Shown here in pieces: positions 1,664 through 45,975 of a stretch of DNA of 49,125 nt (position 1 is its first letter; each line of letters opens with the position of its first letter). Both the position numbers and the translations under genes were made by a program. The notes below the pieces were generated by a model. The model was not told the origin of the DNA, searched no databases, and was given only the letters and a program-made list of their open reading frames with translations. The stretch covers positions 1 through 49,125 of the forward strand of contig DAOUEP010000027.1 of NCBI GenBank assembly GCA_034430515.1. Reading direction: 5' to 3'. The DNA comes from Dehalococcoidales bacterium (GTDB lineage: Bacteria; Chloroflexota; Dehalococcoidia; Dehalococcoidales; RBG-16-60-22).

Positions 1664-1729
1664 ATAAGCCGAGGATGTGCCGAGGGTGGTTTGGGTGGGA
1701 ATAGATAACTCCGAGGGGCGGGGGCTGGA
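1664..1729 (+). repeat. Solo arm copy of the repeat family (core GGGTGGGAATAGATA at 1693-1707)
   Basis: ATAAGCCGAGGATGTGCCGAGGGTGGTTTGGGTGGGAATAGATAACTCCGAGGGGCGGGGGCTGGA is near-identical to the reverse complement of 10264-10332. Confidence 0.85.
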
Positions 1730-1748
1730 AAATTAAGCCAGAAAGAAA

Positions 1749-1824
1749 TGGAGCGGAAGACGAGATTCGAACTCGCGACCTTCTCCTTGGCAAGGAGACG
1801 TTCTAGCCACTGAACTACTTCCGC
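1749..1824 (-). tRNA. tRNA-Gly (anticodon GCC), CCA encoded
   Basis: The reverse complement reads GCGGAAGTAGTTCAGTGG...CTCCTTGCCAAGGAG...GGTTCGAATC...CTTCCGCTCCA. The cloverleaf folds and the anticodon loop is TTGCCAA. Confidence 0.92.
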
Positions 1825-1833
1825 CCGCTGGCG

Positions 1834-1909
1834 TGGTGCCGAGGCCCAGATTTGAACTGGGGACACCTTGATTTTCAGTCAAGTGCTCTACCAACTGAGC
1901 TACCTCGGC
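1834..1909 (-). tRNA. tRNA-Phe (anticodon GAA), CCA encoded
   Basis: The reverse complement reads GCCGAGGTAGCTCAGTTGGTAGAGC ACTTGACTGAAAATCAAG ... GGTTCAAATCTGGGCCTCGGCACCA. Confidence 0.92.
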
Positions 1910-1919
1910 AAACAGCTAT

Positions 1920-1948
1920 ATTTTACTTGAGAACAGGGTTGCAGTCAA
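1920..1948 (-). promoter_or_regulatory. Sigma70-type promoter for the tRNA-Phe/tRNA-Gly unit
   Basis: The minus strand reads TTGACT, a 17-nt spacer, then TAAAAT. The -10 ends 10 nt before the mature tRNA-Phe 5' end. Confidence 0.7.
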
Positions 1949-1972
1949 GAATGAAGCGCGCGGTAAAAATCC

Positions 1973-2368
1973 TCATCGCAATTTCCATATATCCAGCCAG
2001 TGGAGCGGCAGGAGCTCCTTCAGGGTAATCGTTTCCTGCTGGCTGAGGATTATCTTCGTCGCCGCGTTGGCCGGGTTAATCTGGTAAATCAGCTCCCGGC
2101 ACCTCCCGCAGGGCGTGGCGGGCTCTTTTTTCAGGTTAACGGCGGCCAGCATCTCGATTTCCGACTCGTGGTGCTTGAGCATCTCGGCGATGGCAGAGTG
2201 CTCGGCGCAGAAGCCGATGCCGCAGGACGCATCGATGCAAACGCCGGTATACACGTTACCGGCCCTGGTCAGTATCGCCGCCCCTACGGAGCCGCTTTCA
2301 CACTCGCGGCTGGGCTTATAGACGCCGGTTACGCTATGGGCTTTATCAATCAGTTCCGGTATGGTCAT
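1973..2368 (-). CDS. cdd: Cytidine deaminase
   Basis: The zinc motifs CAEHSAIAEM and PCGRCRELI are present. I chose the ATG at 2368 (MTIPELIDKA) because AGGAG sits 7 nt upstream; the ORF track start at 2398 has no SD. Confidence 0.85.
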   Translation of the reverse strand: MTIPELIDKAHSVTGVYKPSRECESGSVGAAILTRAGNVYTGVCIDASCGIGFCAEHSAIAEMLKHHESEIEMLAAVNLKKEPATPCGRCRELIYQINPANAATKIILSQQETITLKELLPLHWLDIWKLR

Positions 2369-2481
2369 TGTTGAGTCTCCTGTTCTTGTTATCAGCACTA
2401 TTATACCTTATCCCCCGATTGACAACCTTATTCCGATATGTAATGATATATCGTTATAATTTGCCGGCGAGGGTGGAGCGC

Positions 2482-3729
2482 ATGTCTGACCAGGTCGCTG
2501 CCGAGGCTAGCCACAGGAAAATCTGGGGCATGCACCACAATATCTTCTTCCTGGGGCTGGTCAGCCTCCTCACCGATACTTCCAGCGAGATGATTTTCAC
2601 CCTCGTTCCCCTCTTTGTCTTTAATGTCCTCGGTGCCGGTGCCCTGGTGGTTGGTCTTATCGGCGGCCTCTCCGAGAGCTTCGATGCCATTTTCCGTATC
2701 TTCAGCGGCCGGCTCAGCGACCGCATTAAAAAGCGCAAGCTACTGGCGGTGCTCGGCTACGGTTTCTCCACCCTGTGCAAGCCCTTCATGCTGCTGGCCT
2801 CGGTATGGGGCGGGGTGCTGGCCGTCCGCTTCGGCGACCGGGTCGGCAAAGGTATCCGTACCTCGCCGCGCGATGCCCTCATCGCCGATTCCGTCGGTCT
2901 GGACAAAAGGGGCAAAGGCTTTGGCATCCACCGCGCCATGGATACCGCCGGGGCGGTCATCGGCCTGGCCATCGCCGCCGTCATCATCTACGCTATCCAG
3001 GGCGGCAGCCTCGACCTCGGTAAGGAGTCTTACCGCTGGCTGGTAATCGTGGGGGTGATACCCGCCGTGCTGGCGGTGCTGGTCCTGCTGGCCTTCGTCC
3101 ACGAAAGGGGCCTGCCGAAAAGCTCCGCACCGAAGGCCGCCGACCTCGTGGCGCCGGCAGCCGCCTTCAGCACCCGGTTCAAGCTTTACCTGGCTATCAT
3201 GGCTATCTTTACCCTGGGCAACTCCAGCGATTTTTTCGTCATCCTGCGGGCGCAGAACCTGGGCACTAACGTTCTGAACATCACCCTGATGCTCGTCCTG
3301 TTCAATGTTACCTACGTCGCCACCTCGGTGCCGGCGGGCATACTCTCCGACCGCCTCGGGCGGCGGGGGCTTATCGCCCTGGGCTGGACAATCTACGCCC
3401 TCGTCTATCTCGGCTTCGCCCTGGCGACGAATATATGGCAGGTCTGGGTGCTCTTCGCCGGTTACGGCGTCTATTACGGCATCGTGGAGGGCGTGGCCCG
3501 CGCCTTTGTCGCCGACCTCGTCCCCCCGGCCAGAAGGGGCACGGCCTACGGCTATTATCACGGCGTGGTAGGGCTGACGCTGCTGCCGGCGAGCGTCCTG
3601 GCCGGTTGGCTGTGGAGTGTTTTAAGCCCGGCGGCGCCGTTCTATCTGGGGGCCGGTATGGCCTTCCTGGCGTTGCTGGCGTTGCTGGCGCTGCTGAAGG
3701 AGCCGCGTAGAAGCGCTATTCCAGTATAA
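2482..3729 (+). CDS. MFS transporter
   Basis: The protein has about 12 hydrophobic segments and an MFS-like loop GRLSDRIKKRK. The ATG at 2482 is preceded by GGTGGAG. The track extension to 2368 runs through the AT-rich promoter region (TTGACA at 2419-2424). Confidence 0.8.
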   Translation: MSDQVAAEASHRKIWGMHHNIFFLGLVSLLTDTSSEMIFTLVPLFVFNVLGAGALVVGLIGGLSESFDAIFRIFSGRLSDRIKKRKLLAVLGYGFSTLCKPFMLLASVWGGVLAVRFGDRVGKGIRTSPRDALIADSVGLDKRGKGFGIHRAMDTAGAVIGLAIAAVIIYAIQGGSLDLGKESYRWLVIVGVIPAVLAVLVLLAFVHERGLPKSSAPKAADLVAPAAAFSTRFKLYLAIMAIFTLGNSSDFFVILRAQNLGTNVLNITLMLVLFNVTYVATSVPAGILSDRLGRRGLIALGWTIYALVYLGFALATNIWQVWVLFAGYGVYYGIVEGVARAFVADLVPPARRGTAYGYYHGVVGLTLLPASVLAGWLWSVLSPAAPFYLGAGMAFLALLALLALLKEPRRSAIPV

Positions 3730-4546
3730 CGTTATCAATGAGCCTCGTTTTACCTATCTTCACCGCCAGCGATACCAGCGCCGGGGGCCGGAGGCGGTGC
3801 ATCTCCTTGAGGGTGATGGCATCGGCCACGGAGACGTAGTCGATGTCGGCCAGGGGCTCTTTCTCGATAAGCTCGGTCATCTCGCGGCGGATGGCGCCGG
3901 CGTCCTTCTCGCCCCGCGCCCAGTGCCGCCGGGCCAGCTCCAGCGCCCGGTAGAGGACGGCAGCGGCCTGACGCTGCTCGGCGTTGAGGTAGGTATTGCG
4001 GCTGCTCATGGCCAGGCCGTCGGACTCGCGCACGGTGGGGCAGGCCACCACCGCCAGGTTCATGTTGAGGTCGCCGACCATCTTCTTGATGACGGCCAGC
4101 TGCTGGGCGTCCTTCTGGCCGAAGTAGGCCTTGTCCGGGCTGACGATATTGAACAGTTTGGCGACGACGGTGGCCACGCCGCGAAAGTGGCCGGGGCGGC
4201 TGGCGCCTTCCAGCCGGCTGGCAACGTCGCCCGGCGTTACCCAGGTATCGCCGCCCTCCGGGTACATCTCCTCGACTTCCGGCATGAAGCAAATATCGGT
4301 CAGCGGCTCTAAAAGCCCCAGGTCGCGCTCGGTATCGCGGGGATAGCCCCGGAAGTCTTCCTTGGGGCCGAACTGGGTGGGGTTGACGAAGATGCTGGCG
4401 ACGACGGTCGGGCACTCTTCCCGGGCGCGTCTTACCAGCGCCAGGTGGCCTTCGTGGAGGTAGCCCATAGTGGGGACGAAGCCGACCGGCGCGGCGGCCT
4501 GGAGCCGCATTGCCCGCATCTCTGGAATTGTCTTGATGACCTGCAT
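3716..4546 (-). CDS. panC: Pantoate--beta-alanine ligase
   Basis: The sequence GFVPTMGYLHEGHLALVRRA matches the HIGH-type motif of PanC, and the protein is full length at 276 aa. Confidence 0.95.
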   Translation of the reverse strand: MQVIKTIPEMRAMRLQAAAPVGFVPTMGYLHEGHLALVRRAREECPTVVASIFVNPTQFGPKEDFRGYPRDTERDLGLLEPLTDICFMPEVEEMYPEGGDTWVTPGDVASRLEGASRPGHFRGVATVVAKLFNIVSPDKAYFGQKDAQQLAVIKKMVGDLNMNLAVVACPTVRESDGLAMSSRNTYLNAEQRQAAAVLYRALELARRHWARGEKDAGAIRREMTELIEKEPLADIDYVSVADAITLKEMHRLRPPALVSLAVKIGKTRLIDNVILE

Positions 4547-4571
4547 TTGGTTGTCTATCTGAGGGGGATTT

Positions 4572-5399
4572 TTACTCCAACCCTTTCAAGACGCTCTCGT
4601 CCATGGGGAAGCTCTGGGCGTCGGTGGGGAACTGGCGGGCCTTGACCTCCTGGTGGTACTGGGAGATAGCTGTTGACATAATATTGGCAAGCCTGGCGTA
4701 CTGCTTGGCGTGCTTGGGGACGAAGTCGGTATAGGAGCCGAGGATATCGTTGATGACCTGCACCTGGCCGTCGCAGCCGGCCCCGGCGCCGATGCCGATG
4801 GTGGGGATGCTTATCCTGCGGGTTATCAGGGTGGCCAGGGGGGCGGGGACGGTCTCCAGCACCACGGCGAAGGCTCCGGCCCGGTCGAGGGCGATGGCGT
4901 CGTCGAGGAGCTTTTTGGCCGCCTCCGGGGTCTTGCCCTGGATTTTATGCCCGCCGAGGGCGTTGATGGACTGGGGCGTGAGGCCGATGTGCCCCATCAC
5001 CGGGATGCCGCAGTCGACGATGCGCCGCACCTTATCGGCGACGGTGACGCCGCCTTCCAGCTTGACGGCCTGACAGCCGGTCTCCTGGAGGAAGCGCCCG
5101 GCGTTGCCCAGGGCCTGCTCGGCGCTGAGGTGGTAGGTCATGAAGGGCATGTCGCCGACGACGAGGGCGTTTTTAGCTCCGCGCACCACCGCCCTGGTGT
5201 GGTGCAGCATGACTTCCAGCGTCACCGGGATAGTAGAATCGTAGCCGAGGACGACCATCCCCAGCGAGTCGCCGACGAGGATAAGGGGCACGCCCGCTTC
5301 GTCGACGATGCGGGCGGTGGTGTAATCGTAAGCGGTGAGCATGGTAATCGGCTCGCCCTTACGTTTCATTTCCCGGATGGTACCGACGTTGACTCTCAC
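4572..5399 (-). CDS. panB: 3-methyl-2-oxobutanoate hydroxymethyltransferase
   Basis: The sequence reads ITMLTAYDYTTARIVDEAGVPLILVGDSLGMVVLGYDST. Confidence 0.95.
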   Translation of the reverse strand: MRVNVGTIREMKRKGEPITMLTAYDYTTARIVDEAGVPLILVGDSLGMVVLGYDSTIPVTLEVMLHHTRAVVRGAKNALVVGDMPFMTYHLSAEQALGNAGRFLQETGCQAVKLEGGVTVADKVRRIVDCGIPVMGHIGLTPQSINALGGHKIQGKTPEAAKKLLDDAIALDRAGAFAVVLETVPAPLATLITRRISIPTIGIGAGAGCDGQVQVINDILGSYTDFVPKHAKQYARLANIMSTAISQYHQEVKARQFPTDAQSFPMDESVLKGLE

Positions 5400-5408
5400 G
5401 GTGTCTCC

Positions 5409-5780
5409 TTAGCTGAAAATGCGCTCGTCCACCGGCTCGATAATCTCGTTGCGCTCGTTAACGTGGATGATGATGGGCCGGTAGCCGGGGATGGCCTCCT
5501 CCGGCACCTCGTGGTAGGTGAGGATGATGCAGAGGTCGCCGGGGACGGCCAGGCGGGCCGCGGCCCCGTTGAGGCAGATTTCACCGCTGCCGGCCTTCCC
5601 CTCGATGGCGTAGGTAGTGAAGCGGGCGCCGTTATTGATGTTGAGCACCTGCACCTGCTCGTAGGGGACGATGTCGGCGGCCTGCATCAATCTGGTGTCG
5701 ATGGTGATGCTGCCCTCGTAGTTGATGTTGGCGTCGGTGACGGTGGCCCGGTGGATTTTGCTTTTGAGCATGTTTCTCAT
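5409..5780 (-). CDS. panD: Aspartate 1-decarboxylase
   Basis: The sequence reads [25 protein letters not shown], containing the pyruvoyl-forming G-S site. Confidence 0.95.
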
Positions 5781-6654: not shown

Positions 6655-6664
6655 CTTACCTCTC

Positions 6665-6698: not shown

Positions 6699-6811
6699 AA
6701 AAGTGACAGGGTTGTATTGGTGCCGTCTCGGTCGTTGCCGATCCAAGCGACTTATTTTATTAAGGTCAATACTCCCGGCTCACCGCCATTACGGTCGGTG
6801 GCCTACTATAA

Positions 6812-7995: not shown

Positions 7996-8270
7996 TTTTC
8001 TTGAAGGCGGGGTAGTTTTTTACCTCGCCCTCTTTGTCCCTGTGAGGAAATCCCCCTTAATCCCCCTTTTTCAAAGGGGGAAACTGTGAAAGAAAGATAA
8101 GACGTTATAGCTTCTCCCTTTGGCAAAGGGAGAACGAGAGGGATTTTGGAGGGGAGGGGCAAAACCCTCGCGCTAAGCGGCGGATGCCGCGAGGGTGTTT
8201 ACCCGCCGAAGCTTCAGCGCAGGCGGGGCTAGGGTGGGAATAGATAACACCGAGGGGCGGAGAGGAGATA
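7993..8270 (+). repeat. Composite repeat element (modules M1, M2, M3 and M4 with insert; core at 8232-8246)
   Basis: It shares TAGTTTTCTTnAAGnCGGGGTAG...TACCTC with 33468-33505. Its hairpins CCCCCTTTTTCAAAGGGGG and CTCCCTTTGGCAAAGGGAG, and GCTAAGCGGCGGATGCCGCGAGGG...GGGTGGGAATAGATA, are shared with the 25.6, 33.7 and 45.8 kb copies. Confidence 0.9.
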
Positions 8271-8338: not shown

Positions 8339-8809
8339 ATTTACGCAATCATCGAAACCGGCGGCAAGCAGTATAAAGTAACCGAAGGCCAGACCCTCAA
8401 CGTCGACCTCCTGGAGAAGGCCAGCGGCCCGGTGGAGCTGGACAAAGTCCTGCTCATCGCCGACGGCGCTGACGTCACCGTGGGGAAGCCGGCCATCGCG
8501 GGCGCCAGGGTGCTGGCTACGGCCAAGGAAAACGGCCGCGCCCGAAAGATAATCGTCTTTAAATACAAGGCCAAGGTACGCTACCGCCGCAAGACCGGCC
8601 ACCGCCAGCCCTACACCACCATCAGCATCGATAAGATACTCCCGCCGGGGGCGGAGGCGCCCAAGCCGGTCGCCAAGAAAGCAGCTCCCAAGCCGACCGC
8701 AGAGAAGGCTTCGCCTAAACCGGCCGCAAAGAAAGCGTCGCCCAAGCCGGTCGCCAAGAAGGCGGCCCCGCGGCCCAAGAAAACAGAGGTAACCCCCGAT
8801 GGCGCATAA
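8339..8809 (+). CDS. rplU: 50S ribosomal protein L21 with Lys/Ala/Pro-rich C-terminal extension
   Basis: The canonical L21 N-terminus (I)[17 protein letters not shown] begins at the ATT at 8339, 6 nt after GGAGG (8328-8332). The track ORF from the GTG at 8432 is N-terminally truncated. Confidence 0.88.
8657..8785 (+). repeat. In-frame 27-bp tandem repeat (about 4.5 units) encoding (A/S)PKPxAKKA
   Basis: The units are gcgcccaagccggtcgccaagaaagca / gctcccaagccgaccgcagagaaggct / tcgcctaaaccggccgcaaagaaagcg / tcgcccaagccggtcgccaagaaggcg / a partial unit. Confidence 0.85.
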
Positions 8810-9053
8810 AAAAGGAGGCGGCACCAGCCGCAACGGCAGGGACTCTCAGGGCCAGCGGCTCGGCGTCAAGCGGTTCGCCGGGCAGCAGGTCAACGCGGGC
8901 ACCATTCTGGTGCGCCAGCGCGGCACGCGCATTCACCCCGGCCTTAACGTGGGCATGGGCAAAGACCACACTATCTACGCCACCATCGACGGCGTCGTCA
9001 AGTTCGAGCCTATCGCCAATAACCGCCGCAAGGTCAGCGTTTACAGCAGCTAA
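8799..9053 (+). CDS. rpmA: 50S ribosomal protein L27
   Basis: The sequence reads [29 protein letters not shown]. It overlaps the rplU stop by 11 nt. Confidence 0.95.
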
Positions 9054-9057
9054 GATT

Positions 9058-9264
9058 ATGAAAGAGAAGATTCATCCCCAGTATTATACCGACGCCGAGG
9101 TCGTCTGCGCCTGCGGCCACCGCTTCACCACCGGCTCCACCCGCAAGGAGCTTAGAGTGGAGGTGTGCTCCAACTGCCACCCCTTCTTCACCGGCGAGCG
9201 GCGCATGCTGGACACCACCGGGCGCGTCGAGCGCTTTAAGAAGCGCTACAAGCTGGATGACTAG
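9058..9264 (+). CDS. rpmE: 50S ribosomal protein L31 (Zn-ribbon type)
   Basis: The sequence reads [10 protein letters not shown]...CACGH...[10 protein letters not shown]. Confidence 0.95.
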
Positions 9265-9286
9265 CCGGCAAATCAGAAAGGAAGGC

Positions 9287-9320
9287 AGGAGCGGGCTTTT
9301 TCTACCGCTCCTTTTTCTTT
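9287..9320 (+). terminator. Intrinsic terminator after rpmE
   Basis: AGGAGCGG, a 10-nt loop, CCGCTCCT, followed by TTTTTCTTT. Confidence 0.6.
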
Positions 9321-9326
9321 AGATAG

Positions 9327-10250
9327 ATGGCGGCGGATAAAATAAAGTACAACTACGGCGGGCAGGCGGTTCTCGAGGGTGTGATGATACGCGGGCGTAC
9401 CGCCGTGGTCACCTCCGTGCGCCGCGCCGACGGCGAAATCACCACCGACGTCCGCCCCCTGCACGCCCTCACCACCGGCCGGCTGCGCCACATCCCCCTG
9501 ATACGCGGCATCGTCGTCCTCATCGAGGCCATGGTCATCGGCATCCAGAGCCTGATGTACTCGGCCAGCGCCGCCGTGGAGGAAGAGGGCGAGGAAGTCC
9601 CCACCAAGGCCCTCTGGCTCATGGTGGGCGTGGGGGTGGTGCTGGTGGTGCTGCTCTTCTTTCTGGTGCCGCTCTTCCTGACCAACCTCCTCAACCAGTA
9701 CCTGCCCAACACGATTGTCTTTAACCTCGTCGAGGGCGTTATCCGCATCATCATCTTCCTGGGCTATCTCAAACTCATCGGGCTGATGCCGGATATCAAG
9801 CGGGTCTTTACCTACCACGGCGCCGAGCACAAGACGGTCAACGCCTACGAGGCGGGCGAGCCCCTGGAAGTGGACGCCATCCGCAAGTACGGCACCGCCC
9901 ACGTGCGCTGCGGCACCAGCTTTCTCTTTCTGGTGCTTATCATCGCCATCATTGTCTTCGCCTTCATCGGGCGGGACATCTTCTGGCTGATGATTGTGGG
10001 GCGCATCGTGCTTATCCCGGTGATTATGGCGCTGGGATACGAGGTCATCTACTTCGGCGCCAAGCACAGCCGCAACTGGCTGATGCGCGCCCTGCTCTGG
10101 CCGGGGCTGCTTTTACAGTCGATGACCACCGGCGAGCCGGACGACAGCCAGATTGAGGTGGCCATCGCCTCCATGACTAGGGCGATAGAAATAGACCGGG
10201 CCGACGAAGCCGCCACTGCTGAAGGGGCTACCGAAACGGCTTCGGCCTAG
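9327..10250 (+). CDS. DUF1385 family membrane-associated protein (YqhQ-like)
   Basis: The sequence contains YGGQAVLEGVMIRG and YHGAEHK motifs plus a TM core. This family typically neighbours rpmE. Confidence 0.85.
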   Translation: MAADKIKYNYGGQAVLEGVMIRGRTAVVTSVRRADGEITTDVRPLHALTTGRLRHIPLIRGIVVLIEAMVIGIQSLMYSASAAVEEEGEEVPTKALWLMVGVGVVLVVLLFFLVPLFLTNLLNQYLPNTIVFNLVEGVIRIIIFLGYLKLIGLMPDIKRVFTYHGAEHKTVNAYEAGEPLEVDAIRKYGTAHVRCGTSFLFLVLIIAIIVFAFIGRDIFWLMIVGRIVLIPVIMALGYEVIYFGAKHSRNWLMRALLWPGLLLQSMTTGEPDDSQIEVAIASMTRAIEIDRADEAATAEGATETASA

Positions 10251-10263: not shown

Positions 10264-10332
10264 TCCAGCCCCCTCCGCCCCTCGGAGGTATCTATTCCCA
10301 CCCAAGCCGCCCTCGGCACATCCGCGGCTTAT
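10264..10332 (-). repeat. Solo arm copy of the repeat family (core complement at 10289-10303)
   Basis: Its reverse complement matches 1664-1729 almost base for base. Confidence 0.85.
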
Positions 10333-10351
10333 CCCGTAGCAGAAAAGTGTC

Positions 10352-10371
10352 ATTCCCGCGGAAGCGGGAAT
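10352..10371 (-). terminator. Hairpin ATTCCCGC-nnnn-GCGGGAAT downstream of coaE (possible terminator)
   Basis: It has an 8-bp stem. The minus strand continues GACACTTTTCTGC. A similar hairpin follows xerC at 30241-30266. Confidence 0.4.
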
Positions 10372-10380
10372 CCAGTTTCT

Positions 10381-12310: not shown

Positions 12311-12458
12311 GCAGGCTCTCCTTCTCCAGCTTCCGCGCCACGATGGCGTTGCGACCGCCGCCCCTGGCCGCGTCCAGGGCGCGCCCCGCCGGCGGCAAAG
12401 CGATATTTTCCCGGAGGAACGCCGCCGGTTGGGAGGAATGTTGGTGGTGGGGCGTCAA
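12300..12458 (-). CDS. Small bridging ORF (52 aa) resembling the extreme C-terminus of a GGDEF domain
   Basis: A TTG start overlaps the upstream TGA (ATTGA), and the stop overlaps the htrA ATGATG. The peptide is MTPHHQHSSQPAAFLRENIALPPAGRALDAARGGGRNAIVARKLEKESLHDE and contains the pattern AL..A[KR]..GRN.[VI]. GC3 is high. It is absent from the ORF track because it is under 60 aa. Confidence 0.35.
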   Translation of the reverse strand: MTPHHQHSSQPAAFLRENIALPPAGRALDAARGGGRNAIVARKLEKESLHDE

Positions 12459-17790: not shown

Positions 17791-18039
17791 ATGACCGAGA
17801 AGAAAGTAGTTATCTATTCCACGCCCACCTGACCTTACTGTGGAAAGGCGAAGGAGTATCTTTCGCAAAAGGGAATCAAGTACACGGAATACAACGTGGC
17901 CGCCGACCGGGATAAAGCTAAAGAGATGGTGGCCCTGACCAAACAGATGGCGGTGCCGGCCATCATCATCGATGACAAGGATATCGTCATCGGCTTCAAC
18001 GTCGCCAAGCTGGACGAGCTGCTGTCAGCCAAGAAATAA
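17791..18039 (+). CDS. Glutaredoxin-like protein with in-frame UGA (putative selenocysteine) in the U-P-Y-C redox motif
   Basis: The translation is MTEKKVVIYSTPT[TGA 17830-17832]PYCGKAKEYLSQKGIKYTEYNVAADRDKAKEMVALTKQMAVPAIIIDDKDIVIGFNVAKLDELLSAKK. GGAAGGGA precedes the ATG. It is not in the ORF track because the TGA splits it. Confidence 0.75.
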
Positions 18040-21465: not shown

Positions 21466-21540
21466 GGCGCGCTCCCTGTCTCCCGCGCTAAAGCGGGATT
21501 ACATAACAGTCTAGCACGATACCACATCCTTGTACAACAT

Positions 21541-21606
21541 CCCCCCGCCCCCCTCGTTGTTATCTTTTCCCACCCACCCGCCCCCGGTGAAGCCACGGCT
21601 TAGCCC
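21541..21606 (-). repeat. Degenerate solo arm copy of the repeat family
   Basis: The reverse complement GGGCTAAGCCGTGGCTTCACCGGGGGCGGGTGGGTGGGAAAAGATAACAACGAGGGGGGCGGGGGG aligns with the 1664-1729 type. Confidence 0.7.
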
Positions 21607-21676
21607 GGAGGTTTACCACCCCTACCCCTATAAGCTATAATCAAAGTAGGGCCTTTTTCTCAATAAGGAGTCAACT

Positions 21677-25504: not shown

Positions 25505-25835
25505 TTAATCTCTAAGGGGTTCAAGGGGGACTCTCACCTCCCCCTTGCCCCCCCCGCCCGGAGATTTTTTATCCCACCCGGCCCGCCCGTTGGCATTCCG
25601 CCACTACTCACTGGTGTTTCCCCGTCCCGCCCCGGGAAAATCCTCCTTTAGTCCCCCTTTGCAAAGGGGGACAAACGTATGGGTTGCCGGCGGTGATTCT
25701 AAAGGAAAGTGGTATCGTCTCCCTTTCGTAAAGGGAGACGGAGAGGGATTTTGGTGGGGTAGGGGAAACTAAGAGATAAGCGGCGGATGCCGCGAGGGTG
25801 GCCAGGGTGGGAATAGATAACACCGATAGGGTGGG
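25505..25835 (+). repeat. Full-length composite repeat element with inverted terminal arms (core at 25805-25819; inverted core at 25570-25579)
   Basis: The left arm TTTTTTATCCCACCCGGCCCGCCCGTTGGCATTCCGCC is an imperfect inverted copy of the right arm GGCGGATGCCGCGAGGGTGGCCAGGGTGGGAATAGATAA. Internal hairpins are GTCCCCCTTTGCAAAGGGGGAC and GTCTCCCTTTCGTAAAGGGAGAC. Confidence 0.88.
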
Positions 25836-25908
25836 GCAAAGAGGTGTGAGGTAAGTTATTGCCTCCATTCTAAAGACAATTTAGCACTAAAGTACCACCC
25901 CGACCAAA

Positions 25909-27071: not shown

Positions 27072-29183
27072 ATGAGTAAGAAACTGGTTATCGTGGAATC
27101 CCCGGCCAAGGCCAGAACGCTGGGCAAGATACTGGGCCGGGGCTACAGCCTCAAGGCGTCGTTGGGGCACGTGCGCGACCTTCCCCGGGGCCAGATGGGG
27201 GTGGATATCGAAAACGGCTTTTCGCCCCGCTACGTGATACCTCGCGTCAAGACCAAGCTCGTCAACGAGCTCAAGCAGGCGGCCAAAGAGGCCAAGGAGA
27301 TTTACCTGGCCACCGACCCCGACCGCGAGGGCGAGGCCATCGCCTGGCACCTGGCCGAGCTTATCCGCAGCGACGACAAACCCTACCACCGCGTCGTCTT
27401 CCGCGAGATTACCGAGGAGGCCGTCCGGAGCGCCTTCGCCAGCCCGCGCGATATCGACATGCAGCTGGTGGACGCCCAGCAGGCGCGCCGCGTCCTGGAT
27501 AGACTGGTCGGCTATAAAATCTCGCCCCTGCTCTGGAGCAAGGTGCGCAAGCGCCTCTCCGCCGGGAGGGTGCAGTCGGTGGCGGTGAAAATCATCGCCG
27601 ACCGCGAGCGCGAGATTACGGCCTTCAAGCCGGTGGAGTACTGGGTCATCGAGGCCGAGCTCCGTCAGCCGAAGGATAGGACCGTCTTCCGCGCCACGCT
27701 CGTCGGGCTCTGCGGCGGCGGCAAGCTGGAGATTCATAACGAAAAAGAGGCGGACAAGATTGAAGCGGCGCTGAAAGACGCCGCCTACGGCGTGCTCAAC
27801 GTCGCCACCAAGAAGGCCGCCCGCCAGCCGGCGCCCCCCTTCACCACCAGCACCTTGCAGCAGGAGGCCTGGCGCAAGCTGAGATTTTCGGCCAAGCAAA
27901 CCATGGCCGTCGCCCAGCAGCTCTACGAGGGCCTGCCCCTGGGCAGCGAGGGCAGCGTCGGCCTGATTACCTACATGCGCACCGACTCCACCCGCATCGC
28001 CGGGTCGGCCATCGCCGAGACGCGCCAGTTCATCGGCGAGAAGTACGGCCCTAAATACCTGCCGCCGCGCCCCCGCGCCTTCACCGCCCGCAGCCGCGGC
28101 GCCCAGGAGGCTCACGAGGCCATCCGCCCCACCCGCACCTACCGCGAGCCGGGCGCCGTCAGGAGTTTCCTCAATAACAACCAGTTCCGCCTCTACGACC
28201 TCATCTGGAAGCGGCTGGTGGCCAGCCAGATGGCGGCGGCCCTCTTCAATAACACCACCGTGGACATCGAGGCCAGCGACGGCGACGACTACCTGCTGCG
28301 CACGGCGGCCTCGGTCAATACCTTCCCCGGCTTTATGACCCTCTACAGCGAGGGCAAGGACGAGGAAGAAGACGAGGCCAAAAAGACCCTCCCCGAGCTT
28401 GCCAAAGACGATAAGCTGGATCTCATTGATGTCCACCCCGACCGGCGCTTCACCCAGCCGCCGCCCCGCTATACCGAGGCCACCCTGGTGAAGACCCTGG
28501 AGCAGAACGGCATCGGCCGCCCCTCCACCTACGCCCCCACCATCGCCACCATCCAGGATCGGGAGTACGTCGTCAAGAGCAAGGGCGTATTCCAGCCCAC
28601 CGAGCTGGGTCTGGCCGTCAACGACCTGCTCGTTGAGCACTTTCCGGACATCATCAACGTCAAGTTTACCGCCGATATGGAAAACGAGCTGGACGACATC
28701 GCCAGCGCCGAGCGCGACTGGCCCGGCGTCATCGGCAAATTTTACGCCCCCTTCGACAGGGACTTGCAGAAGGCGCTGGCCACGGCGGAGCGGGTCAAGC
28801 TGGAGGACGAAAAGACCGGCGACGCCTGCCCCAAGTGCGGTAAGCCCCTCATCGTCAAGACGGGCCGCTTCGGCAAGTTCGTCGCCTGCTCCGGCTATCC
28901 GGAATGCCGCTACACGCAATCTTTCCAGGTGAAGACCGGCGTGAAATGCCCCCAGTGCGGCGGCGACCTGGTGCAGCGCATCTCCAAGAAGCGCCGGACC
29001 TTCTACGGCTGCGCCAACTATCCGGAGTGCACCTTCGCCACCAACTTAAAGCCCCTGCCCACCCCCTGCCCCAAGTGCGGCGGCCTGCTTACTCAGCGGG
29101 GGAAGCAGGCTATCTGTAATAAATGTGATTATAAAGGGAAGATACCGCAGGAAGAAAAAGAGGCGGAGAAAACTACGGGATAA
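27072..29183 (+). CDS. topA: DNA topoisomerase I
   Basis: It has a TOPRIM N-terminus ([10 protein letters not shown]), the active-site region ITYMRTDS, and C-terminal Zn ribbons (CPKCG, CPQCG). Confidence 0.96.
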
Positions 29184-29185
29184 GC

Positions 29186-29268
29186 CGTTGATGATGCAGG
29201 GCGGTTCACCCGCCGAAGCTTTAGCGTAGGCAGGCCGGGTGGGAATAGATAACATGGATGGGGCGGGG
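29186..29268 (+). repeat. Solo arm copy of the repeat family (core at 29237-29251)
   Basis: The sequence is GGTTCACCCGCCGAAGCTTTAGCGTAGGCAGGCCGGGTGGGAATAGATAAC. Confidence 0.8.
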
Positions 29269-29276
29269 TGGTTATC

Positions 29277-30233
29277 ATGGAAGATGATTGGGACAAATAT
29301 ATAAAGCTGTTTCTTGATTATCTTAAGGCGGAACGCAACGCGTCTCCGTACACCATGCGCAATTACCTGATATCACTCGGTGCGTTTGAGAGCTTCTGCA
29401 AAAAGGATAATACCTACACGCCTAAAAAGGTTGAAAAACCATTAGTACGCAGTTTTCTCAACCATCTCAATGAAACGGGAATTGCCCGTTCCAGCATCGC
29501 CCGTAATATGTCAGCGATACGCTCTTTCTTTAGGTATCTGCAGAGAGAAGAAATCGTGCCCAAGAACCCTGCAGCCAATATCACATCGCCCAAGCTAGAC
29601 CGCCGTTTACCCTCCTTTCTTACCAGGGAAGAGGTCAAGCATATTGTAGAATCACCAGGTTTGCCCAAACAACCTAATAAGATGTCATATCCGGTATTAC
29701 TACGCGATATTAGCTTGCTAGAATTACTTTACGCCTCCGGCCTGCGGGTAAGCGAGGTTGTCAGTATAGATTTGGAACAGATGAATCTTGACTATAATGA
29801 AATCCGGGTTAAAGGCAAAGGATCAAAAGAGAGAAACGTGTTGATTGGCGAGCCGGCAGCGCGAACCTTGAGGACTTATCTTAAAGAGGCCCGCCCGGTG
29901 CTTGCTGGAGATAAGAAGTCCCGGGCAGTTTTTATTACCAGCTACCAGGATGAAGACGGTATCCAGTCCGGCGAGCGTCTGACCGTGCGCCGGGTTCAGA
30001 AAATCATCAAGAAGTATTCTAGGGACATAGGTAAAAGGGTGCACCCGCATATCCTCCGCCACACCTTCGCCACCCACCTCCTCGACGGCGGCGCCGACCT
30101 CAAGGTGGTGCAGGAGCTTTTAGGCCACGCCGACCTGGCCTCGACGCAGATTTACACCCACGTCAGCCAGACTCGCGCCCGCCAGATTTACCTGGCCGCC
30201 CACCCCATGGCCAGGGGCAAGGGAGAAGAATAA
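29277..30233 (+). CDS. xerC: Tyrosine recombinase XerC/XerD family
   Basis: The N-terminal SAM-like core-binding domain reads YLKAERNASPYTMRNY. The catalytic residues are R...HILRHTFATHLL...GHADLASTQIYTHV. The dprA-topA-xerC synteny is conserved. Confidence 0.88.
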   Translation: MEDDWDKYIKLFLDYLKAERNASPYTMRNYLISLGAFESFCKKDNTYTPKKVEKPLVRSFLNHLNETGIARSSIARNMSAIRSFFRYLQREEIVPKNPAANITSPKLDRRLPSFLTREEVKHIVESPGLPKQPNKMSYPVLLRDISLLELLYASGLRVSEVVSIDLEQMNLDYNEIRVKGKGSKERNVLIGEPAARTLRTYLKEARPVLAGDKKSRAVFITSYQDEDGIQSGERLTVRRVQKIIKKYSRDIGKRVHPHILRHTFATHLLDGGADLKVVQELLGHADLASTQIYTHVSQTRARQIYLAAHPMARGKGEE

Positions 30234-30240
30234 ATAATAT

Positions 30241-30266
30241 GTCATTCCCGCTTTCACGGGAATGAC
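30241..30266 (+). terminator. Perfect 10-bp hairpin GTCATTCCCG-ctttca-CGGGAATGAC after xerC
   Basis: It lies immediately 3' of the xerC stop and has no clear T tract. Confidence 0.4.
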
Positions 30267-33467: not shown

Positions 33468-33818
33468 GTTTTCTTTAAGACGGGGTAGATTCTTTACCTC
33501 ACCCCCTGTATCCCCCTCTCCAAACTCAGTATCAGGAAAAACCATTTGTTCTTTGTTTGGAGAGGGGGAATTTTCATTAAGAGGGGCTAGCGCCCCTCTT
33601 CGCGGGCTACTCCCTGTAGTTAAATCCTTCTCACTCTCCCTTTACGAAAGGGAGACGATAGCCTTGTTCTTAAGGATTACCACCGGCAACCCGTTGGTTT
33701 GTCCCCCTTTGTAAAGGGGGATTAAAGGAGGATTTCAGAGGGGTAAAGGGGTGGCATCTCCGAGCTAAGCGGCGGATGCCGCGAGGGCGGCCAGGGTGGG
33801 AATAGATATCTAAGTGGG
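33468..33818 (+). repeat. Composite repeat element with modules M2 and M3 inverted relative to the other copies (core at 33794-33808)
   Basis: 33617-33662 is the reverse complement of the CGTCTCCCTTT..AAAGGGAGAGTGAGAAGGATTT module of 45.8 kb. 33676-33750 is the reverse complement of the 25630-25700 module. The terminal GCTAAGCGGCGGATGCCGCGAGGGCGGCCAGGGTGGGAATAGATA keeps the usual orientation. Confidence 0.88.
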
Positions 33819-42723: not shown

Positions 42724-43156
42724 TCAGGTACTCAAGAAGCATCAGCGCGATAAGGCCCGGCTGGTGGACATCCTCCAGGATATCCAGGCGGCCATCGGCT
42801 ACCTGCCCCAGAAGGCGCTGGAAGAGGCCAGCCGGGGGCTGGACGTGCCGCTGAGCCGCGTCTATAGCGTGGCCACCTTCTTCAAGGCCTTCAGCCTGAC
42901 GCCGCGGGGGCGATACCTCATCAACGTCTGCATGGGGACGGCCTGCCACGTGCGCGGCGCCGACAAGGTGCTGGAGAGCATCGAGAAGGAGCTCAGAATC
43001 AAGACCGGCCAGACCACCAAAGACTTACGCTTCACCCTGGAGACGGTCAACTGCGTGGGCGCCTGCGCCCTGGGGCCGATGGTCATCGTCGGCGAAGATT
43101 ATCACGGCGAGATGACGCCGGAGGGCGTTACCGCCGTGCTCAAGGAATATAACTAA
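42692..43156 (+). CDS. NuoE/HydC-like thioredoxin-fold [2Fe-2S] subunit
   Basis: The sequence contains VCMGTACHVRG and NCVGACALGP. Confidence 0.88.
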   Translation: MAPEEQKAKVNQVLKKHQRDKARLVDILQDIQAAIGYLPQKALEEASRGLDVPLSRVYSVATFFKAFSLTPRGRYLINVCMGTACHVRGADKVLESIEKELRIKTGQTTKDLRFTLETVNCVGACALGPMVIVGEDYHGEMTPEGVTAVLKEYN

Positions 43157-43174
43157 GAGCGGAGGGAGTCACTA

Positions 43175-44866
43175 GTGACGAAACTGAAATCCGCAGGTGA
43201 ACTGGAGACCCTGAGAAAGCAAATAACCGGGAAGCGCGACCCCAACAAGGCCGTCGTCACCGTCTGCAACGGGACGGGCTGCCACGCCCACGGCTGCCTG
43301 GCCGTTACCGCCGCCTTTCGGGACGAAATCGCCAAAAAGAAGCTGACCGCCAAAGTGGACGTGCGCGCCACCGGCTGCCACGGCTTCTGCGAGCGGGGGC
43401 CGCTGGTGGTCATCCAGCCGCAGGGCATCTTCTACCAGCGCGTCCGCGTCAAGGACGTGCCGGAAATCCTCAGCGAGACAGTCGCCAGGGGCAACCCCGT
43501 CGAGCGGCTGCTCTATACGGACAGGGCCTCCGGCCGGAAGATTACCCAGGAGCACGACGTCCCCTTCTACAAGCTCCAGAAGCGCCTCGTCTTCGGCAAT
43601 AACGGCGCTATTGACCCCACCTCCATCGAGGACTACATCGCCGTCGGCGGCTACGCCGCCCTGGCCAAGGCCCTCGGCATGAAGCCGGAGGCCATCATCG
43701 CCGAGGTCAAGAAGGCCGGCCTGCGCGGGCGCGGCGGCGGCGGTTTCCCCACCGCCGACAAGTGGCGGAGCACCCGCGACGCCGCGGGCGACATCAAATA
43801 CGTCATCTGCAACGCCGACGAGGGCGACCCCGGCGCCTACATGGACAGGAGCCTGGCCGAGGGCAACCCCCACAGCTTTCTGGAGGGGATGATTATCGGG
43901 GCCTACGCCATCGGCGCCCACGAGGGCTACGTCTACATCCGCAACGAGTACCCCTTGGCGGTGCGCCACGTGGCCGCCGCCATCGAGGCCGCCGAGAAGC
44001 TGGGGCTGCTGGGCCAGAATATTTTAGGCTCCGGCTTCGATTTCAGCATCCGCATCCAGCGCGGCGGCGGCGCCTTTATCTGCGGCGAGTCCACCGCCCT
44101 GATGGCCTCGCTGGAGGGCAAGGTCGGCGAGCCGCGCGCCAAGTACATCCACACCTCGGAGCAGGGACTCTGGGGGCGGCCGACCAACCTCAACAATGTG
44201 GAGACCTGGGCCAACGTGCCCATCATTATCAATAACGGCGCCGACTGGTACGCCAAAATCGGTACCGCGGGCAGCAAGGGCACCAAGATATTCTCGCTGG
44301 TGGGCAACATCGTCAATACCGGCCTGGTCGAGGTGCCCATGGGCATCACCCTGCGCGAAATCATCTTCGACCTGGGCGGGGGCATCCCCAAGGGGCGCGC
44401 CTTCAAGGCCGTCCAGACGGGCGGGCCCTCCGGCGGCGTCATCCCCGAGAGCCTGCTCGACCTGACGGTAGACTTCGACGAGCTGACCAAGGCCGGCTCG
44501 ATGATGGGCTCCGGCGGCATGATTGTCATGGACGACAAGGCCTGCATGGTGGACGTCGCCAAGTACTTCGTCACCTTCCTGGAGGGCGAGTCCTGCGGCA
44601 AGTGCCTGCCCTGCCGCGAGGGACTCCAGCAGATGAAGGCCATCCTCACCCGCATTACCGAAGGCAAGGGCAAGCCCGGCGACCTGGCGCTGCTGGAGGA
44701 GCTGGCCGCCACGCTGCAGGCCGCCTCGCTCTGCGCCCTGGGCCAGCAGGCCCCCAACCCGGTCCTGAGCACACTGCGCCACTTCCGCGCCGAGTACGAG
44801 GCGCACATCAAGAATAAAAAGTGCCCCGCCGGCGTCTGCAAGCTGGGGGCGGCCAAAAAGAAGTAA
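43175..44866 (+). CDS. NuoF/HydB-like NAD(P)H-binding FMN flavoprotein with N-terminal [2Fe-2S] domain
   Basis: The sequence contains [31 protein letters not shown] and [12 protein letters not shown]. The N-terminus carries [11 protein letters not shown]...[10 protein letters not shown]. Confidence 0.9.
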
Positions 44867-44873
44867 GGATGCG

Positions 44874-45611
44874 ATGCCAATGGTAAAACTGACGATAAAC
44901 GGACGCCAAATCCAGGCCGAGGCGGGCACCCCCGTGCTGGCCGCCGCCCGGGCGCACAACATCTATATCCCCACCCTCTGCGAGAACGAGGCCGTCGCCC
45001 CTTACGGCGCCTGCCGGCTCTGCCTGGTGGAAATCAGGACGGCCAAGGGCCGCGAGCGGCTGGTGACCTCCTGCATTTACCAGGTGGAAGAAGGGCTGAC
45101 CGTAACCACCGATACCGAGCGCATCCGGGCCATCCGCAAGGTGCTCCTGGAGCTATTGCTGGCGCGCTGCCCCGAGTCCGAAGTTATCCGCGATATGGCC
45201 GCCGCTGCCGGCGTCACCAAAACGCGCTTCGAGGAGCAGAAAGGCAATAACAAGTGCATCCTCTGCGCCAACTGCGTGCGTACCTGCGAGGAGGTGGTCG
45301 GGGTGGCCGCCATCTCGCTGGCCCGACGCGGCGTGGAGAGGGAGATGACCACGCCCTTCAACGAAGACTTCTCGGCGGCCTGCATCGGCTGCGGCTCGTG
45401 CGCCTATAGCTGCCCCACCGGCGCCATCACCCTCACCGACAAGGGCGGCGTGAGGACGATTAGCTGGCCGCACAACCGGATGAAGTTCGCCCTCAAGAAG
45501 TGCTCCGTCTGCGGCAACTACTGGGCGCCCCAGAAGCAGATTGAGTACATCGCCGAGCTGTCCGGTACGCCGCTTTCCGATTACGATAATTGCCCCGACT
45601 GCCGCGAGTAG
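44874..45611 (+). CDS. NuoG/HydA N-terminal-like Fe-S protein ([2Fe-2S] plus 2x[4Fe-4S]), no catalytic domain
   Basis: The sequence contains LTINGRQIQAEAGTPVL...IPTLC...GACRLCLVE, CILCANCVRTC and CIGCGSCAYSCP. It is only 245 aa. Confidence 0.82.
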   Translation: MPMVKLTINGRQIQAEAGTPVLAAARAHNIYIPTLCENEAVAPYGACRLCLVEIRTAKGRERLVTSCIYQVEEGLTVTTDTERIRAIRKVLLELLLARCPESEVIRDMAAAAGVTKTRFEEQKGNNKCILCANCVRTCEEVVGVAAISLARRGVEREMTTPFNEDFSAACIGCGSCAYSCPTGAITLTDKGGVRTISWPHNRMKFALKKCSVCGNYWAPQKQIEYIAELSGTPLSDYDNCPDCRE

Positions 45612-45634
45612 ATTATCTTTAGTAGGATTTCCTG

Positions 45635-45663
45635 AGAGGGGCTTAACGCCCCTCTTTTCTTTT
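45635..45663 (+). terminator. Intrinsic terminator of the por-nuoEF-like operon
   Basis: AGAGGGGC-ttaac-GCCCCTCT followed by TTTTCTTTT. Confidence 0.8.
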
Positions 45664-45975
45664 ACCCCCTAACCCCCACTCCGCAGAGTTTTTCTTTCCC
45701 ACCCGGCCCGCCCTGTGGCATCCTGCCACCACTCGCTGGGGGTTTCCCCACCCCGCTCCGGTGAAAATCCTCCTTAATCCCCCTTTATGAAAGGGGGACA
45801 ATAGTTCTGGCACGATGGGTCGTCTCCCTTTGTAAAAGGGAGAGTGAGAAGGATTTTGGAGTGGGGTGGAGAAAACTCCGGGCTAAGCGGCGGATGCCGC
45901 GAGGGCAGTTTACCCGCCAGAGCCTTGGCGCAGGCGGGGCCAGGGTGGGAATAGATAGCTCCGGCAGGGTGGGGT
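45664..45975 (+). repeat. Full-length composite repeat element with inverted terminal arms (core at 45943-45957; inverted core at 45695-45704)
   Basis: It is collinear with 25546-25835 along its whole length, apart from one ~20-nt and one ~28-nt indel. Confidence 0.88.

Follow-up and report, generated by a model that had tools for sequence, protein, structure and literature searches.

A family of dispersed, non-coding repeats occupies most of the larger intergenic gaps in a 49,125-nucleotide (nt) stretch of a Dehalococcoidales genome (assembly GCA_034430515.1, contig DAOUEP010000027.1; the whole stretch is called the window here). Its unit is a G-rich arm of ~75 nt, present solo or as inverted pairs around small hairpins. 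As observed, its copies are dispersed and confined to intergenic DNA, form foldback structures, take up nested insertions, recombine with one another, and are gained, decay and are lost. The explanation favoured here, with better than even confidence yet well short of certainty, is a long-lived, non-autonomous repeat family in a set of Dehalococcoidia lineages, of the kind represented by repetitive extragenic palindromes and bacterial interspersed mosaic elements (REP/BIME), hairpin-forming REP doublets (REPIN) and transposable elements of the miniature inverted-repeat type (MITEs). The family is old and probably selfish. As a whole it appears undescribed, with one hairpin module that fits a described superfamily.

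A preliminary description of the window had centred on the 15-mer GGGTGGGAATAGATA, counted seven times, six on the + strand and one on the - strand, together with three degenerate inverted copies. Both counts hold. The exact copies lie at 1693, 8232, 25805, 29237, 33794 and 45943 on the + strand and at 10289 on the - strand, against an expectation of 0 from dinucleotide-preserving shuffles of the window. The degenerate copies are a single-mismatch match at 21561(-) and two inverted arms (~25554-25589 and 45678-45723), which belong to the left arms, at ~25540-25612 and 45665-45745, of composite elements. Matches with three mismatches at 17811, 40988 and 44962 were rejected as intergenic family copies, the first lying inside a small glutaredoxin-like open reading frame (ORF). 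All the loci listed in that description carry related sequence when each is read through. With 9 arms per 49 kb, the family accounts for ~1.8 kb by the sum of part coordinates, roughly 4% of the window and about one third of its non-coding DNA, and it is found in 9 of the ~13 non-coding gaps longer than 80 nt on a gene map based on GC content at third codon positions (GC3), in keeping with the claim that most larger gaps are occupied.

The gaps that hold elements, as placed by the GC3 map, Pfam and the called genes of identical contigs, follow hisI, separate DUF1385 from coaE, or lie in the divergent region between an HcyBio-family gene and aspS; further sites follow clpP, topA, a PurN-like gene and a ferredoxin-domain gene. 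At three loci the elements adjoin tRNA genes, as had been proposed: tRNA-Gly, tRNA-Ser and tRNA-Pro. Most of the gene names given earlier were correct (PRA-CH for hisI, ClpP, Toprim/topoisomerase, DUF1385 and Formyl_trans_N), the exception being a "por operon", which is rather a ferredoxin-domain protein gene. Proteins of the window have exact matches in the metagenome-assembled genome (MAG) GCA_964640715.1, contig CAZXIL010000005.1, and in several JGI sediment metagenomes; exact-protein look-up returned no record for the products of 27072-29183 and 44874-45611.

Could the similarity be due to chance, or to generic GC-rich terminator hairpins? Some modules are indeed plain GC-rich palindromes and possible bidirectional terminators, such as GAGGGGC-n4/5-GCCCCTC. 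However, besides the seven exact 15-mers where none is expected, a repeat search of the window finds shared blocks of 68-114 nt at 85-91% identity, and the arm consensus recurs with invariant non-palindromic blocks in dozens of other genomes. The shared sequence reaches past the hairpins, and this explanation can be regarded as refuted.

The ~75-nt arm has the consensus CTACGGGMTAAGCC..GATG..GAGGGYGG-N1-3-GGGTGGGAAWAGATAAC..GGGGYGGGG; two arm types are distinguished. Type A, the type of the window, reads CTACGGGMTAAGCCGCGGATGATRCGAGGGCGGC-N1-3-GGGTGGGAATAGATAAC-N5-8-GGGGYGGGG. Type B is shorter, occurs in Dehalococcoidales, and consists of a AAAGGGGGC-nnn-GCCCCCTTT hairpin, then CTACCTTAAA, then the core GGGCGGCGGGTGGGAATAGATAAAATCGGGGTGGGG. 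A hidden Markov model (HMM) built from 16 type A copies and run at E <= 1 on 113 genome loci plus the window gave 166 matches, 76 of them near full length. Many of the matched arms lack the exact 15-mer and have AAAAGATAA in its place, the usual variant being GGGTGGGAAAAGATAA. An alignment of 72 copies is invariant or nearly so at the G runs, at the T that separates the last two of them, at AA-AGATA, and at GGG and TAAGC near the 5' edge; from the second G run to the third, the spacer differs between copies in both length and sequence. At their 5' edge, type A arms have the consensus CTACGGG with the variants CTCC, CTGC and TTAC; in type B, CTAC, ATAC or TTAC stands directly 3' of the hairpin.

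Conservation of this kind might suggest a multicopy structured RNA gene or a cis-regulatory RNA (riboswitch, ribozyme or small RNA). A stem AAGCCGC/GCGGCTT can be drawn by hand, with a few compensatory changes (L103, L012, L061), and G-U pairs would favour the G-rich strand. However, RNAalifold finds no consensus structure in the 72 copies, and even this best stem is paired in 73.3% of cells as opposed to 71.5% after shuffling; the arm is thus a sequence motif, not a structured RNA. Rfam contains no family matching any element, whether from the window, single elements or the other-phylum, viral and plasmid loci described below, at gathering and, for the arm, also at permissive thresholds, and copies show no orientation bias towards genes. 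An RNA identity is largely refuted and retains very little probability. Other identities of the arm were set aside as well. Likeness to ribozymes and k-turns (twister-like AAGCC..GAGGG..GCGG, hammerhead CUGAUGA, box C-like UGAUGA) has no Rfam support, and the blocks show no covariation. A tRNA-derived origin was considered on account of the resemblance of the core to the reverse complement of the tRNA-Ser 3' half (GGCGG-NNN-GGGTGGGA) and rejected on the misfit of the T-loop positions and because cores lie near tRNA genes only about as often as intergenic location predicts. Similarity to the RfaH ops element (GGTGGTAGGGTG compared with GGCGGTAGCGTG) agrees in one viral subgroup only. A literature search with the sequence returned only an unrelated primer.

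Arms also combine into composite foldback elements of 170-350 nt, in the window and in other genomes, in which a diverged left arm (C-rich strand on top) and an inverted right arm flank small hairpins. The terminal inverted repeats thus enclose non-coding DNA, the left arm being a degenerate reverse complement of the right, with ends CCCCACC...GGTGGGG. Folded as single strands, the window composites 25536-25840 and 45660-45975 pair arm against arm at -75.9 and -84.4 kcal/mol (z = -6.1 and -6.3). Inverted arm pairs are also present in Dehalococcoidales loci and in a ClpP-relative contig (L147). In one MAG the type B composites can be aligned between a left end CCCCACC... and a right end ...GGGGTGGGG, past which the likeness ceases. 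Internal blocks can differ in orientation from one composite to another: the 114-nt block 25638-25751 is inverted with respect to 33622-33735, at 85% complementarity. The repeat search bears out the earlier claim of reusable modules, including a CCCGCC...GGCGGG insert of 28-30 nt, which is nested at one and the same position in three window arms (repeat families D5 and D9) and is lacking from the orthologous arms of sister species. The earlier term "hairpin repeats" fits the small modules and the arm pairs; the main arm has neither a conserved hairpin nor covariation.

The family extends well beyond the window. A search of a 596-Gb collection with the 15-mer yielded at least 113 loci, of which ~45 are chance matches (by a rough estimate, any 15-mer would have ~1000 chance matches in 596 Gb). 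The remaining loci share far more than the 15-mer and include at least 28 further species-representative assemblies assigned to Dehalococcoidia, Dehalococcoidales or Dehalococcoidaceae. The family is restricted to a set of Dehalococcoidia lineages, where its density is roughly one copy per 4-8 kb; in two loci picked independently of the motif there are 4 arms (L236, 16.2 kb) and 2-3 arms (L237, 16.3 kb). By extrapolation this would amount to hundreds of copies per genome. The distribution is patchy: 80 metagenome loci totalling 428 kb, related through ClpP (75-92% identity, 47-58% GC), contain no arm and a single type B composite (L147:8675-8875). Beyond the window, 75 type A copies were scored by means of a crude gene call based on ORFs: 2 fall inside long ORFs and 21 at locus edges, and the remaining 52 divide by orientation class into 13 ++, 17 --, 14 -+ and 8 +-, with no bias. 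Among the matches listed, 9 of 113 cores have a tRNA gene no more than 150 nt away, about as many as intergenic location predicts. Many copies also lie within ~300 nt of a contig end (L001, L002, L008, L009, L018, L036, L047, L084 and L107, among others); the repeats therefore probably break short-read MAG assemblies.

Comparison with sister species brings out gain, decay and rearrangement of individual copies. Three syntenic loci are informative: L236, from MAG GCA_034420195.1 (CoaE 83% identical), and L237 and L238 (CoaE 77%). The gene order in L236 and L237 is htrA-coaE, arm A1 pointing to the right, then rplU-rpmA-rpmE-DUF1385, followed in L236 by a left-pointing arm A2 and hisI. In the window the ~2-kb rplU-rpmA-rpmE-DUF1385 block (8432-10250) is inverted relative to L236:6501-8333 and L237:9540-11320. 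On its 5' side the window arm 10289(-) is flanked as A1 is (by coaE and the CGTC hairpin discussed below), and on its 3' side as A2 of L236 is; the window arm 8232(+), which has an orthologous arm in L236 and L237, has the 3' flank of A1. Chimeric flanks of this kind are as expected from recombination between inverted arms. The inversion breakpoints lie in two inverted arms, showing that arms are substrates of homologous recombination.

The DUF1385-hisI junction provides a filled and an empty site: 3 nt with no arm in L237 and L238, and a 267-nt composite in L236. This composite is bounded by the direct repeat TAAAGAA, the matching empty sites in L237 and L238 being too diverged to confirm a duplication, and around type B composites no target duplication is clear by eye. 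A 23-nt hairpin flanked by ATTC and related to the CGTC hairpin is present in L236 and absent from the window at the same orthologous DUF1385-end site. Decay can be followed in the panB-panC spacer, which contains a hairpin and an intact arm in L236, another hairpin and a decayed arm (GGTCGGGAATAAAT) in L237, and in the window no more than the left flank followed directly by the final 9 nt of the core (AAATCCCCCTCAG/ATAGACAAC/CAA). Presence/absence polymorphism, which the preliminary description had proposed to look for along with target-site duplication, thus exists between sister species at orthologous sites, and duplication is suggested at the single TAAAGAA site. At strain level no polymorphism was seen: contigs with identical ClpP or CoaE all carry identical elements. 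Apart from the repeats, the same comparison finds a gene for a 178-aa methyltransferase between the rubrerythrin gene and htrA in L236:3776-4312 and L237:6728-7264, where the window has only a 144-nt gap (12311-12454).

How would such a family spread? As a non-autonomous selfish family, the elements would move as DNA, mobilized in trans by a host-encoded enzyme. The likeliest mover would be a single-copy Y1/HUH transposase of the REP-associated tyrosine transposase (RAYT) or TIRYT type acting on single-stranded DNA, with the near-invariant 21-nt core as its putative recognition site; effects on neighbouring genes would be by-products. Several observations weigh against this explanation. The cognate RAYT/IS200-like or other transposase that the preliminary description had suggested looking for was not found. 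An HUH...Y regular expression over 868 kb and tblastn over 1.6 Mb of fetched loci, both crude searches, revealed no Y1/HUH-like ORF. Only 6 inverted core pairs lie 0.5-3.5 kb apart, and none frames an ORF-bearing parent element, the best of them (L016) enclosing a 310-aa ORF that by eye is not transposase-like. Window copies are at most 91% alike, which gives no indication that any of them transposed recently. Only one site suggests a target-site duplication. Finally, conservation is far stronger in the core than elsewhere in the arm, and the core recurs promoter-proximally in phages, a plasmid and other phyla, which a purely selfish Dehalococcoidia element does not explain. As to the recombinase gene at 29268-30233 (+), which follows dprA-topA and is of the XerC/CodV type, it occupies its usual neighbourhood and is therefore not linked to the repeats here; its GC3 of 0.58, compared with 0.8-0.9 in its neighbours, suggests recent acquisition or replacement.

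Could the arms instead be cis elements maintained by the host? The core would then be a signal in DNA or RNA, G-quadruplex (G4)-forming or protein-binding, that acts between operons to insulate, terminate or activate transcription, and selection, not transposition, would maintain the family. Arms are retained at orthologous positions between species separated by 77-83% CoaE identity, which could reflect selection and also counts against a selfish origin: in all three species immediately upstream of the conserved rplU promoter (TTGACGCC...TATAAT), facing the tRNA-Gly/Phe 3' end in the window and L236, and 12 nt from tRNA-Ser in the window and in another MAG (L007). Canonical promoters follow several arms at 5-75 nt, the core varies mostly in the spacers that separate its (near-)invariant G runs, and a two-tier G4 (-9.7 kcal/mol) is predicted for the core by itself. 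However, copies show no orientation bias relative to either neighbouring gene, single copies decay or vanish without replacement, and the family is nearly absent from the 428 kb of contigs with 75-92%-identical ClpP. G4 potential was rejected as a distinguishing trait, G4Hunter matches being common across the window (~63% GC), coding DNA included, and the invariant AAWAGAT is not accounted for by G4 formation. A host-selected role as the general explanation seems unlikely.

The core has a life of its own outside Dehalococcoidia. An extended form, (A)GGGYGGYGGGTGGGAATAGATAA, with 8-9 matched bases beyond the searched 15-mer, is present in Cloacimonadota (L028, L049, L067), twice in a Selenomonadaceae contig (L060), in Peptococcaceae, Desulfosarcina, Helicobacter saguini and a deltaproteobacterial MAG, and in two contigs binned as Falkowbacteria and Nitrospirae (L041, L098) that are near-identical over the ~460 nt of flank compared. 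Among the matches listed, GGGYGG(N0-3)GGGTGGGAAWAGAT occurs in 32 IMG/VR contigs of 31-56% GC. Of 27 distinct viral contexts, 13 (at least 6 of them unrelated) have a TTGACA-like -35 and a TANNNT -10 whose end lies 2-4 nt upstream of the core, as opposed to 2.5% of control positions. Downstream of viral cores there are (TA)-rich tracts, iteron-like tandem repeats (L213) or, in L207, three perfect DnaA boxes beside a replication-initiation gene (phrog_942, E = 3.8e-57); other viral copies adjoin terminase genes or sit in ORF-free regions of ~1 kb. A plasmid of Bacteroides fragilis BFG-481, CP103159, carries three ~210-nt tandem repeats (~46930-47540; L240:2790-3400) in a 1-kb ORF-free stretch between PRPP-kinase/SLOG genes and a gene for single-stranded DNA-binding protein. 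Two of these repeats start with the core AAAGGGCGGTGGGTGGGAATAGAGGG and the first with a degenerate copy, GGGGAAAGAGGG; each has a second core-like half-site, AGGGTGGTGGGAGTATGA, and they have no annotation and no Rfam match. Annotated phage records gave no match to the viral contexts (Klebsiella phage matches are 17-nt chance), and a tRNA scan of the viral loci found none.

It is a tentative possibility that the core, GGGYGG(N0-3)GGGTGGGAAWAGAT (21-24 nt), is an undescribed functional signal on mobile DNA across phyla, captured and amplified in Dehalococcoidia as the foldback arm. Read in this way, the core of phages and plasmids whose hosts are AT-rich may sit just downstream of a promoter-like -10 element, at a predicted transcript start, and beside origin-like features. 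It could be the recognition site of a widespread DNA-processing protein (Y1/HUH, Rep or primase-type), or else a G4-forming initial transcribed sequence for primer or R-loop formation.

A stronger form of the idea would make the core primarily a signal of mobile replicons, at a transcript start or origin and serving priming, replication initiation or transcription control, with the Dehalococcoidia arms a secondary amplification of a captured copy. The promoter-like elements before viral cores and the AT-rich sequence, iterons or DnaA boxes after them are consistent with such a role, as are the CP103159 repeats, where a transcript would start at GGGCGGTGGG. Type B arms share this geometry, their TTGAAA/TTAAGA-N17-19-TACCTT stopping 2-4 nt short of the core. 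In type A arms it is missing: -35/-10 elements match in 0 of 28, the sigma-28, sigma-54 and extracytoplasmic function (ECF) spacings do not fit by eye, and a promoter role for them was rejected. Moreover, several viral copies lie by terminase genes or in structured-looking ORF-free regions rather than at origin-like sites, and hundreds of copies per genome cannot all be origins. This stronger form is accordingly rated as rather improbable, and a non-autonomous repeat family remains the preferred account of the Dehalococcoidia copies.

Some surroundings of the core deserve mention in their own right. AT-rich phages in IMG/VR share a conserved ~1-kb ORF-free region (L201:9880-10910, L198, L202, L203) with the core between apparent helices and a possible pseudoknot (ATCGGCA/TGCCGAT, TTCGGCA/TGCCGAA); it has no Rfam match and, from its primary sequence, may be a novel phage non-coding RNA. 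In L041, L098:1800-2472 and L018:1851-2567, a structured-looking stretch of ~150 nt 3' of the core shares GAGGAC...GUCCGAGC; read by eye, its neighbours are an excisionase-like helix-turn-helix gene (L098) and a pair made up of a ribbon-helix-helix gene and a DUF4433/DarT-like gene (L018). Hairpins of the forms GTCATTGCGAG...GCAATC and GTCATTCC[CT]GC...GGAATGAC stand beside the core in very different phyla (L043:7300-7800 in Helicobacter saguini, L237:14750-14790, L019, L105), consistent with the cross-phylum CGTC-type repeats (PMC3733652).

How does the family compare with known ones? The defining traits of CGTC repeats are the tag (C/T)GTC, a stem of 8-9 bp whose first bases are AT, a loop of 4-5 nt and a CCA tail (Di Nocera, De Gregorio & Rocco 2013, BMC Genomics 14:522, PMC3733652). 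They have no dedicated transposase, cluster in Neisseria in mosaic intergenic regions with other repeats, and belong to GTAG- and CGTC-tagged superfamilies that include Neisseria dRS3 (CGTC-1) and Thermomicrobium roseum GTAG-23 (PMC3733652). The window hairpin at 10349-10376 shows all four traits, with a TGTC tag, an 8-bp AT-first stem, a 4-nt loop and a CCA tail; the hairpin at 30237-30266 fits in part (7-bp stem, 6-nt loop), and in the TCCCCCTTT and CTCCCTTT hairpins one end is tagged (C/T)GTC, with stems that are not AT-first. The earlier remark that the repeats were not recognised as a described family thus needs qualifying on account of the first hairpin, and for the arm and the family as a whole it appears to stand. 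Like CGTC repeats, those of the window have no dedicated transposase that could be found and form mosaic intergenic clusters with other families. However, the five phyla reported for CGTC repeats do not include Chloroflexi (PMC3733652), and the G-rich arm belongs to none of these families.

The likeness to BIME, REP or nested MITEs proposed earlier holds for the dispersed, modular, nested intergenic copies, the arm pairs folding end to end and the presence/absence at orthologous sites; it fails for the arm, which has no conserved hairpin, and for the transposase, which was not found. Like enterobacterial REP/BIME elements and REPIN-RAYT systems (Bertels & Rainey 2011, PMC3116915; Nunvar and Ton-Hoang, as cited in PMC3733652), these are short, dispersed, strictly extragenic repeats that form mosaics of repeat types in alternating orientation and inverted doublets making long hairpins, and that persist vertically for long; the variable CTAC beside the arms may correspond to the conserved CTAC/GTAG of REPs. 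Unlike the 20-40-nt palindrome of REPs, the arm is a non-palindromic G-rich sequence of 75 nt, and only the small accessory hairpins are palindromic; compared with REPIN-RAYT systems, no RAYT was found in the fetched loci, the composites are larger (170-350 nt), and the core is common to phages and other phyla. With bacterial MITEs such as the Correia/NEMIS elements of Neisseria (review PMC10969869), the family shares non-coding foldback structure, terminal inverted repeats, placement between genes, insertions that are polymorphic among related genomes, nesting of insertions and a part in rearrangements. It differs in that no parent insertion sequence with the same ends was found, target duplication is suggested at one site only, and the two arms of a composite are of different subfamilies.

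A further lead comes from families of terminal inverted repeats (TIRs) flanking RAYT-like Y1 "TIRYT" genes, with the TIR motif GGGG[AT][CG]A[CG] (PMC3733652; subclass 2.1, Quentin et al. 2018, PMC6006769). Like these TIRtrons, the arms are moderately abundant long inverted repeats present as singles, dimers and clusters, and 14 of 114 arms (12%), versus 1.3% of random 80-mers, have the motif no more than 20 nt from the core, typically as GGGGTGAGGTAA at the outer end. However, no TIRYT gene was seen in the fetched loci, and most arms end in GGGGYGGGG, outside the motif. The relation, as judged from these ends, is a literature lead and not a demonstrated link.

Table 1. Repeat elements and associated hairpins in the window (coordinates are window positions; E values are from nhmmer with the arm HMM)
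Feature	Position	Strand	Evidence and context
Partial mosaic, cut by the window start	1..80		3' half of GAGGGGC...GCCCCTC palindrome, hairpin CTTCCCCCTTCCCCCAGGGGAAGGGGGA, G-rich tail; inverted match to 33559-33592
Solo type A arm, variant GCCGAGGATGTGCCGAGGG	1650..1729	+	nhmmer E = 3.5e-17; 91% complementary to 10272-10339; outer end faces tRNA-Gly 3' end
Module mosaic after hisI stop	7996..8159	+	End GGCGGGGTAGTTTTTTACCTCGCCC, TCCCCCTTTTTCAAAGGGGGA hairpin, CTCCCTTTGGCAAAGGGAG hairpin, then GAGGGATTTTGG; repeat families D1, D3, D4
Type A arm with nested 30-nt hairpin insert (8197-8226)	8160..8262	+	nhmmer; 41 nt upstream of rplU promoter TTGACG-N17-TATAAT
Solo type A arm, recombinant copy at inversion breakpoint	10264..10344	-	Between convergent DUF1385 and coaE; nhmmer E = 1e-17
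CGTC-type REP hairpin TGTC-ATTCCCGC-GGAA-GCGGGAAT-CCA	10349..10376	+	Sequence read; fits the CGTC definition of PMC3733652
Type A arm, core variant GGGTGGGAAAAGATAAC, divergent promoter region	21535..21624	-	nhmmer E = 1.8e-10
Diverged inverted arm A', left arm of foldback element after clpP	25536..25612	-	Repeat family D13; pairs with 25765-25837 in DNA fold, z = -6.1
Internal hairpin modules TCCCCCTTTGCAAAGGGGGA, CGTCTCCCTTTCGTAAAGGGAGACG, GAGGGATTTTGG	25613..25764		25638-25751 inverse of 33622-33735
Type A arm, variant GCGGCGGATGCCGCGAGGG, right arm of foldback element	25765..25837	+	nhmmer E = 1.9e-15
Type A arm with nested hairpin insert	29167..29269	+	Fills gap between topA and XerC/CodV-like tyrosine recombinase gene; D5, D9, nhmmer
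CGTC-like hairpin ATGTCATTCCCGCTTTCACGGGAATGAC downstream of recombinase gene	30237..30266		Sequence read
Mosaic after PurN-like gene	33468..33750		End GGGGTAGATTCTTTACCTCACCCCC, long hairpin CCCCCTCTCCAAAC...GTTTGGAGAGGGGG, GAGGGGCTAGCGCCCCTC palindrome, two small hairpins; architecture matched in L005, L006
Type A arm abutting tRNA-Ser(GGA) 3' end	33751..33818	+	Core-to-tRNA distance 12 nt; nhmmer E = 6.3e-17
Palindrome GAGAGGGGCTTAACGCCCCTCTT after ferredoxin-domain gene	45634..45657		Sequence read
Diverged inverted arm A', left arm of foldback element	45665..45745	-	Repeat family D13; end-to-end fold z = -6.3
Internal hairpin modules plus GAGAAGGATTTTGG	45746..45868		Repeat families D1, D3, D4
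Type A arm with nested hairpin insert, upstream of tRNA-Pro promoter	45869..45975	+	D5, D9, nhmmer

Two features of the window unrelated to the repeats were also noted. The glutaredoxin-like ORF at 17791-18039 (+) has 82 codons with an in-frame TGA at the first Cys position of CPYC (MTEKKVVIYSTPT*PYCGK...) and is, on this reading of its codons, a candidate selenocysteine protein gene; the ORF listing splits it and the stretch consequently looks like a 641-nt gap. At 6719-6803 (-) Rfam recognises a pan motif (RF01749; 41.7 bits, the gathering score being 36.2), which lies upstream of a panD-panB-panC operon and of the F420_oxidored/DUF2520-family gene that precedes panD; the corresponding spacer between hisF and the pan operon also exists in L236.

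At about one copy per 4-8 kb, the family is a main driver of local rearrangement in these genomes, with the rplU-DUF1385 inversion as a worked example, and it probably fragments MAG assemblies. The repeats also provide lineage markers and a test case for long persistence without an obvious transposase. What sets the family apart, and makes its most interesting thread, is the sharing of the core across phyla at promoter-proximal or origin-like positions: a near-invariant G-rich sequence of 21 nt is common to Dehalococcoidia repeats, Cloacimonadota, Selenomonadaceae, candidate-phylum contigs, 32 viral contigs among the matches listed and a Bacteroides plasmid, and no known family was found to explain it. 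Because CP103159 resides in a cultivable Bacteroides, the function of the core is directly testable.

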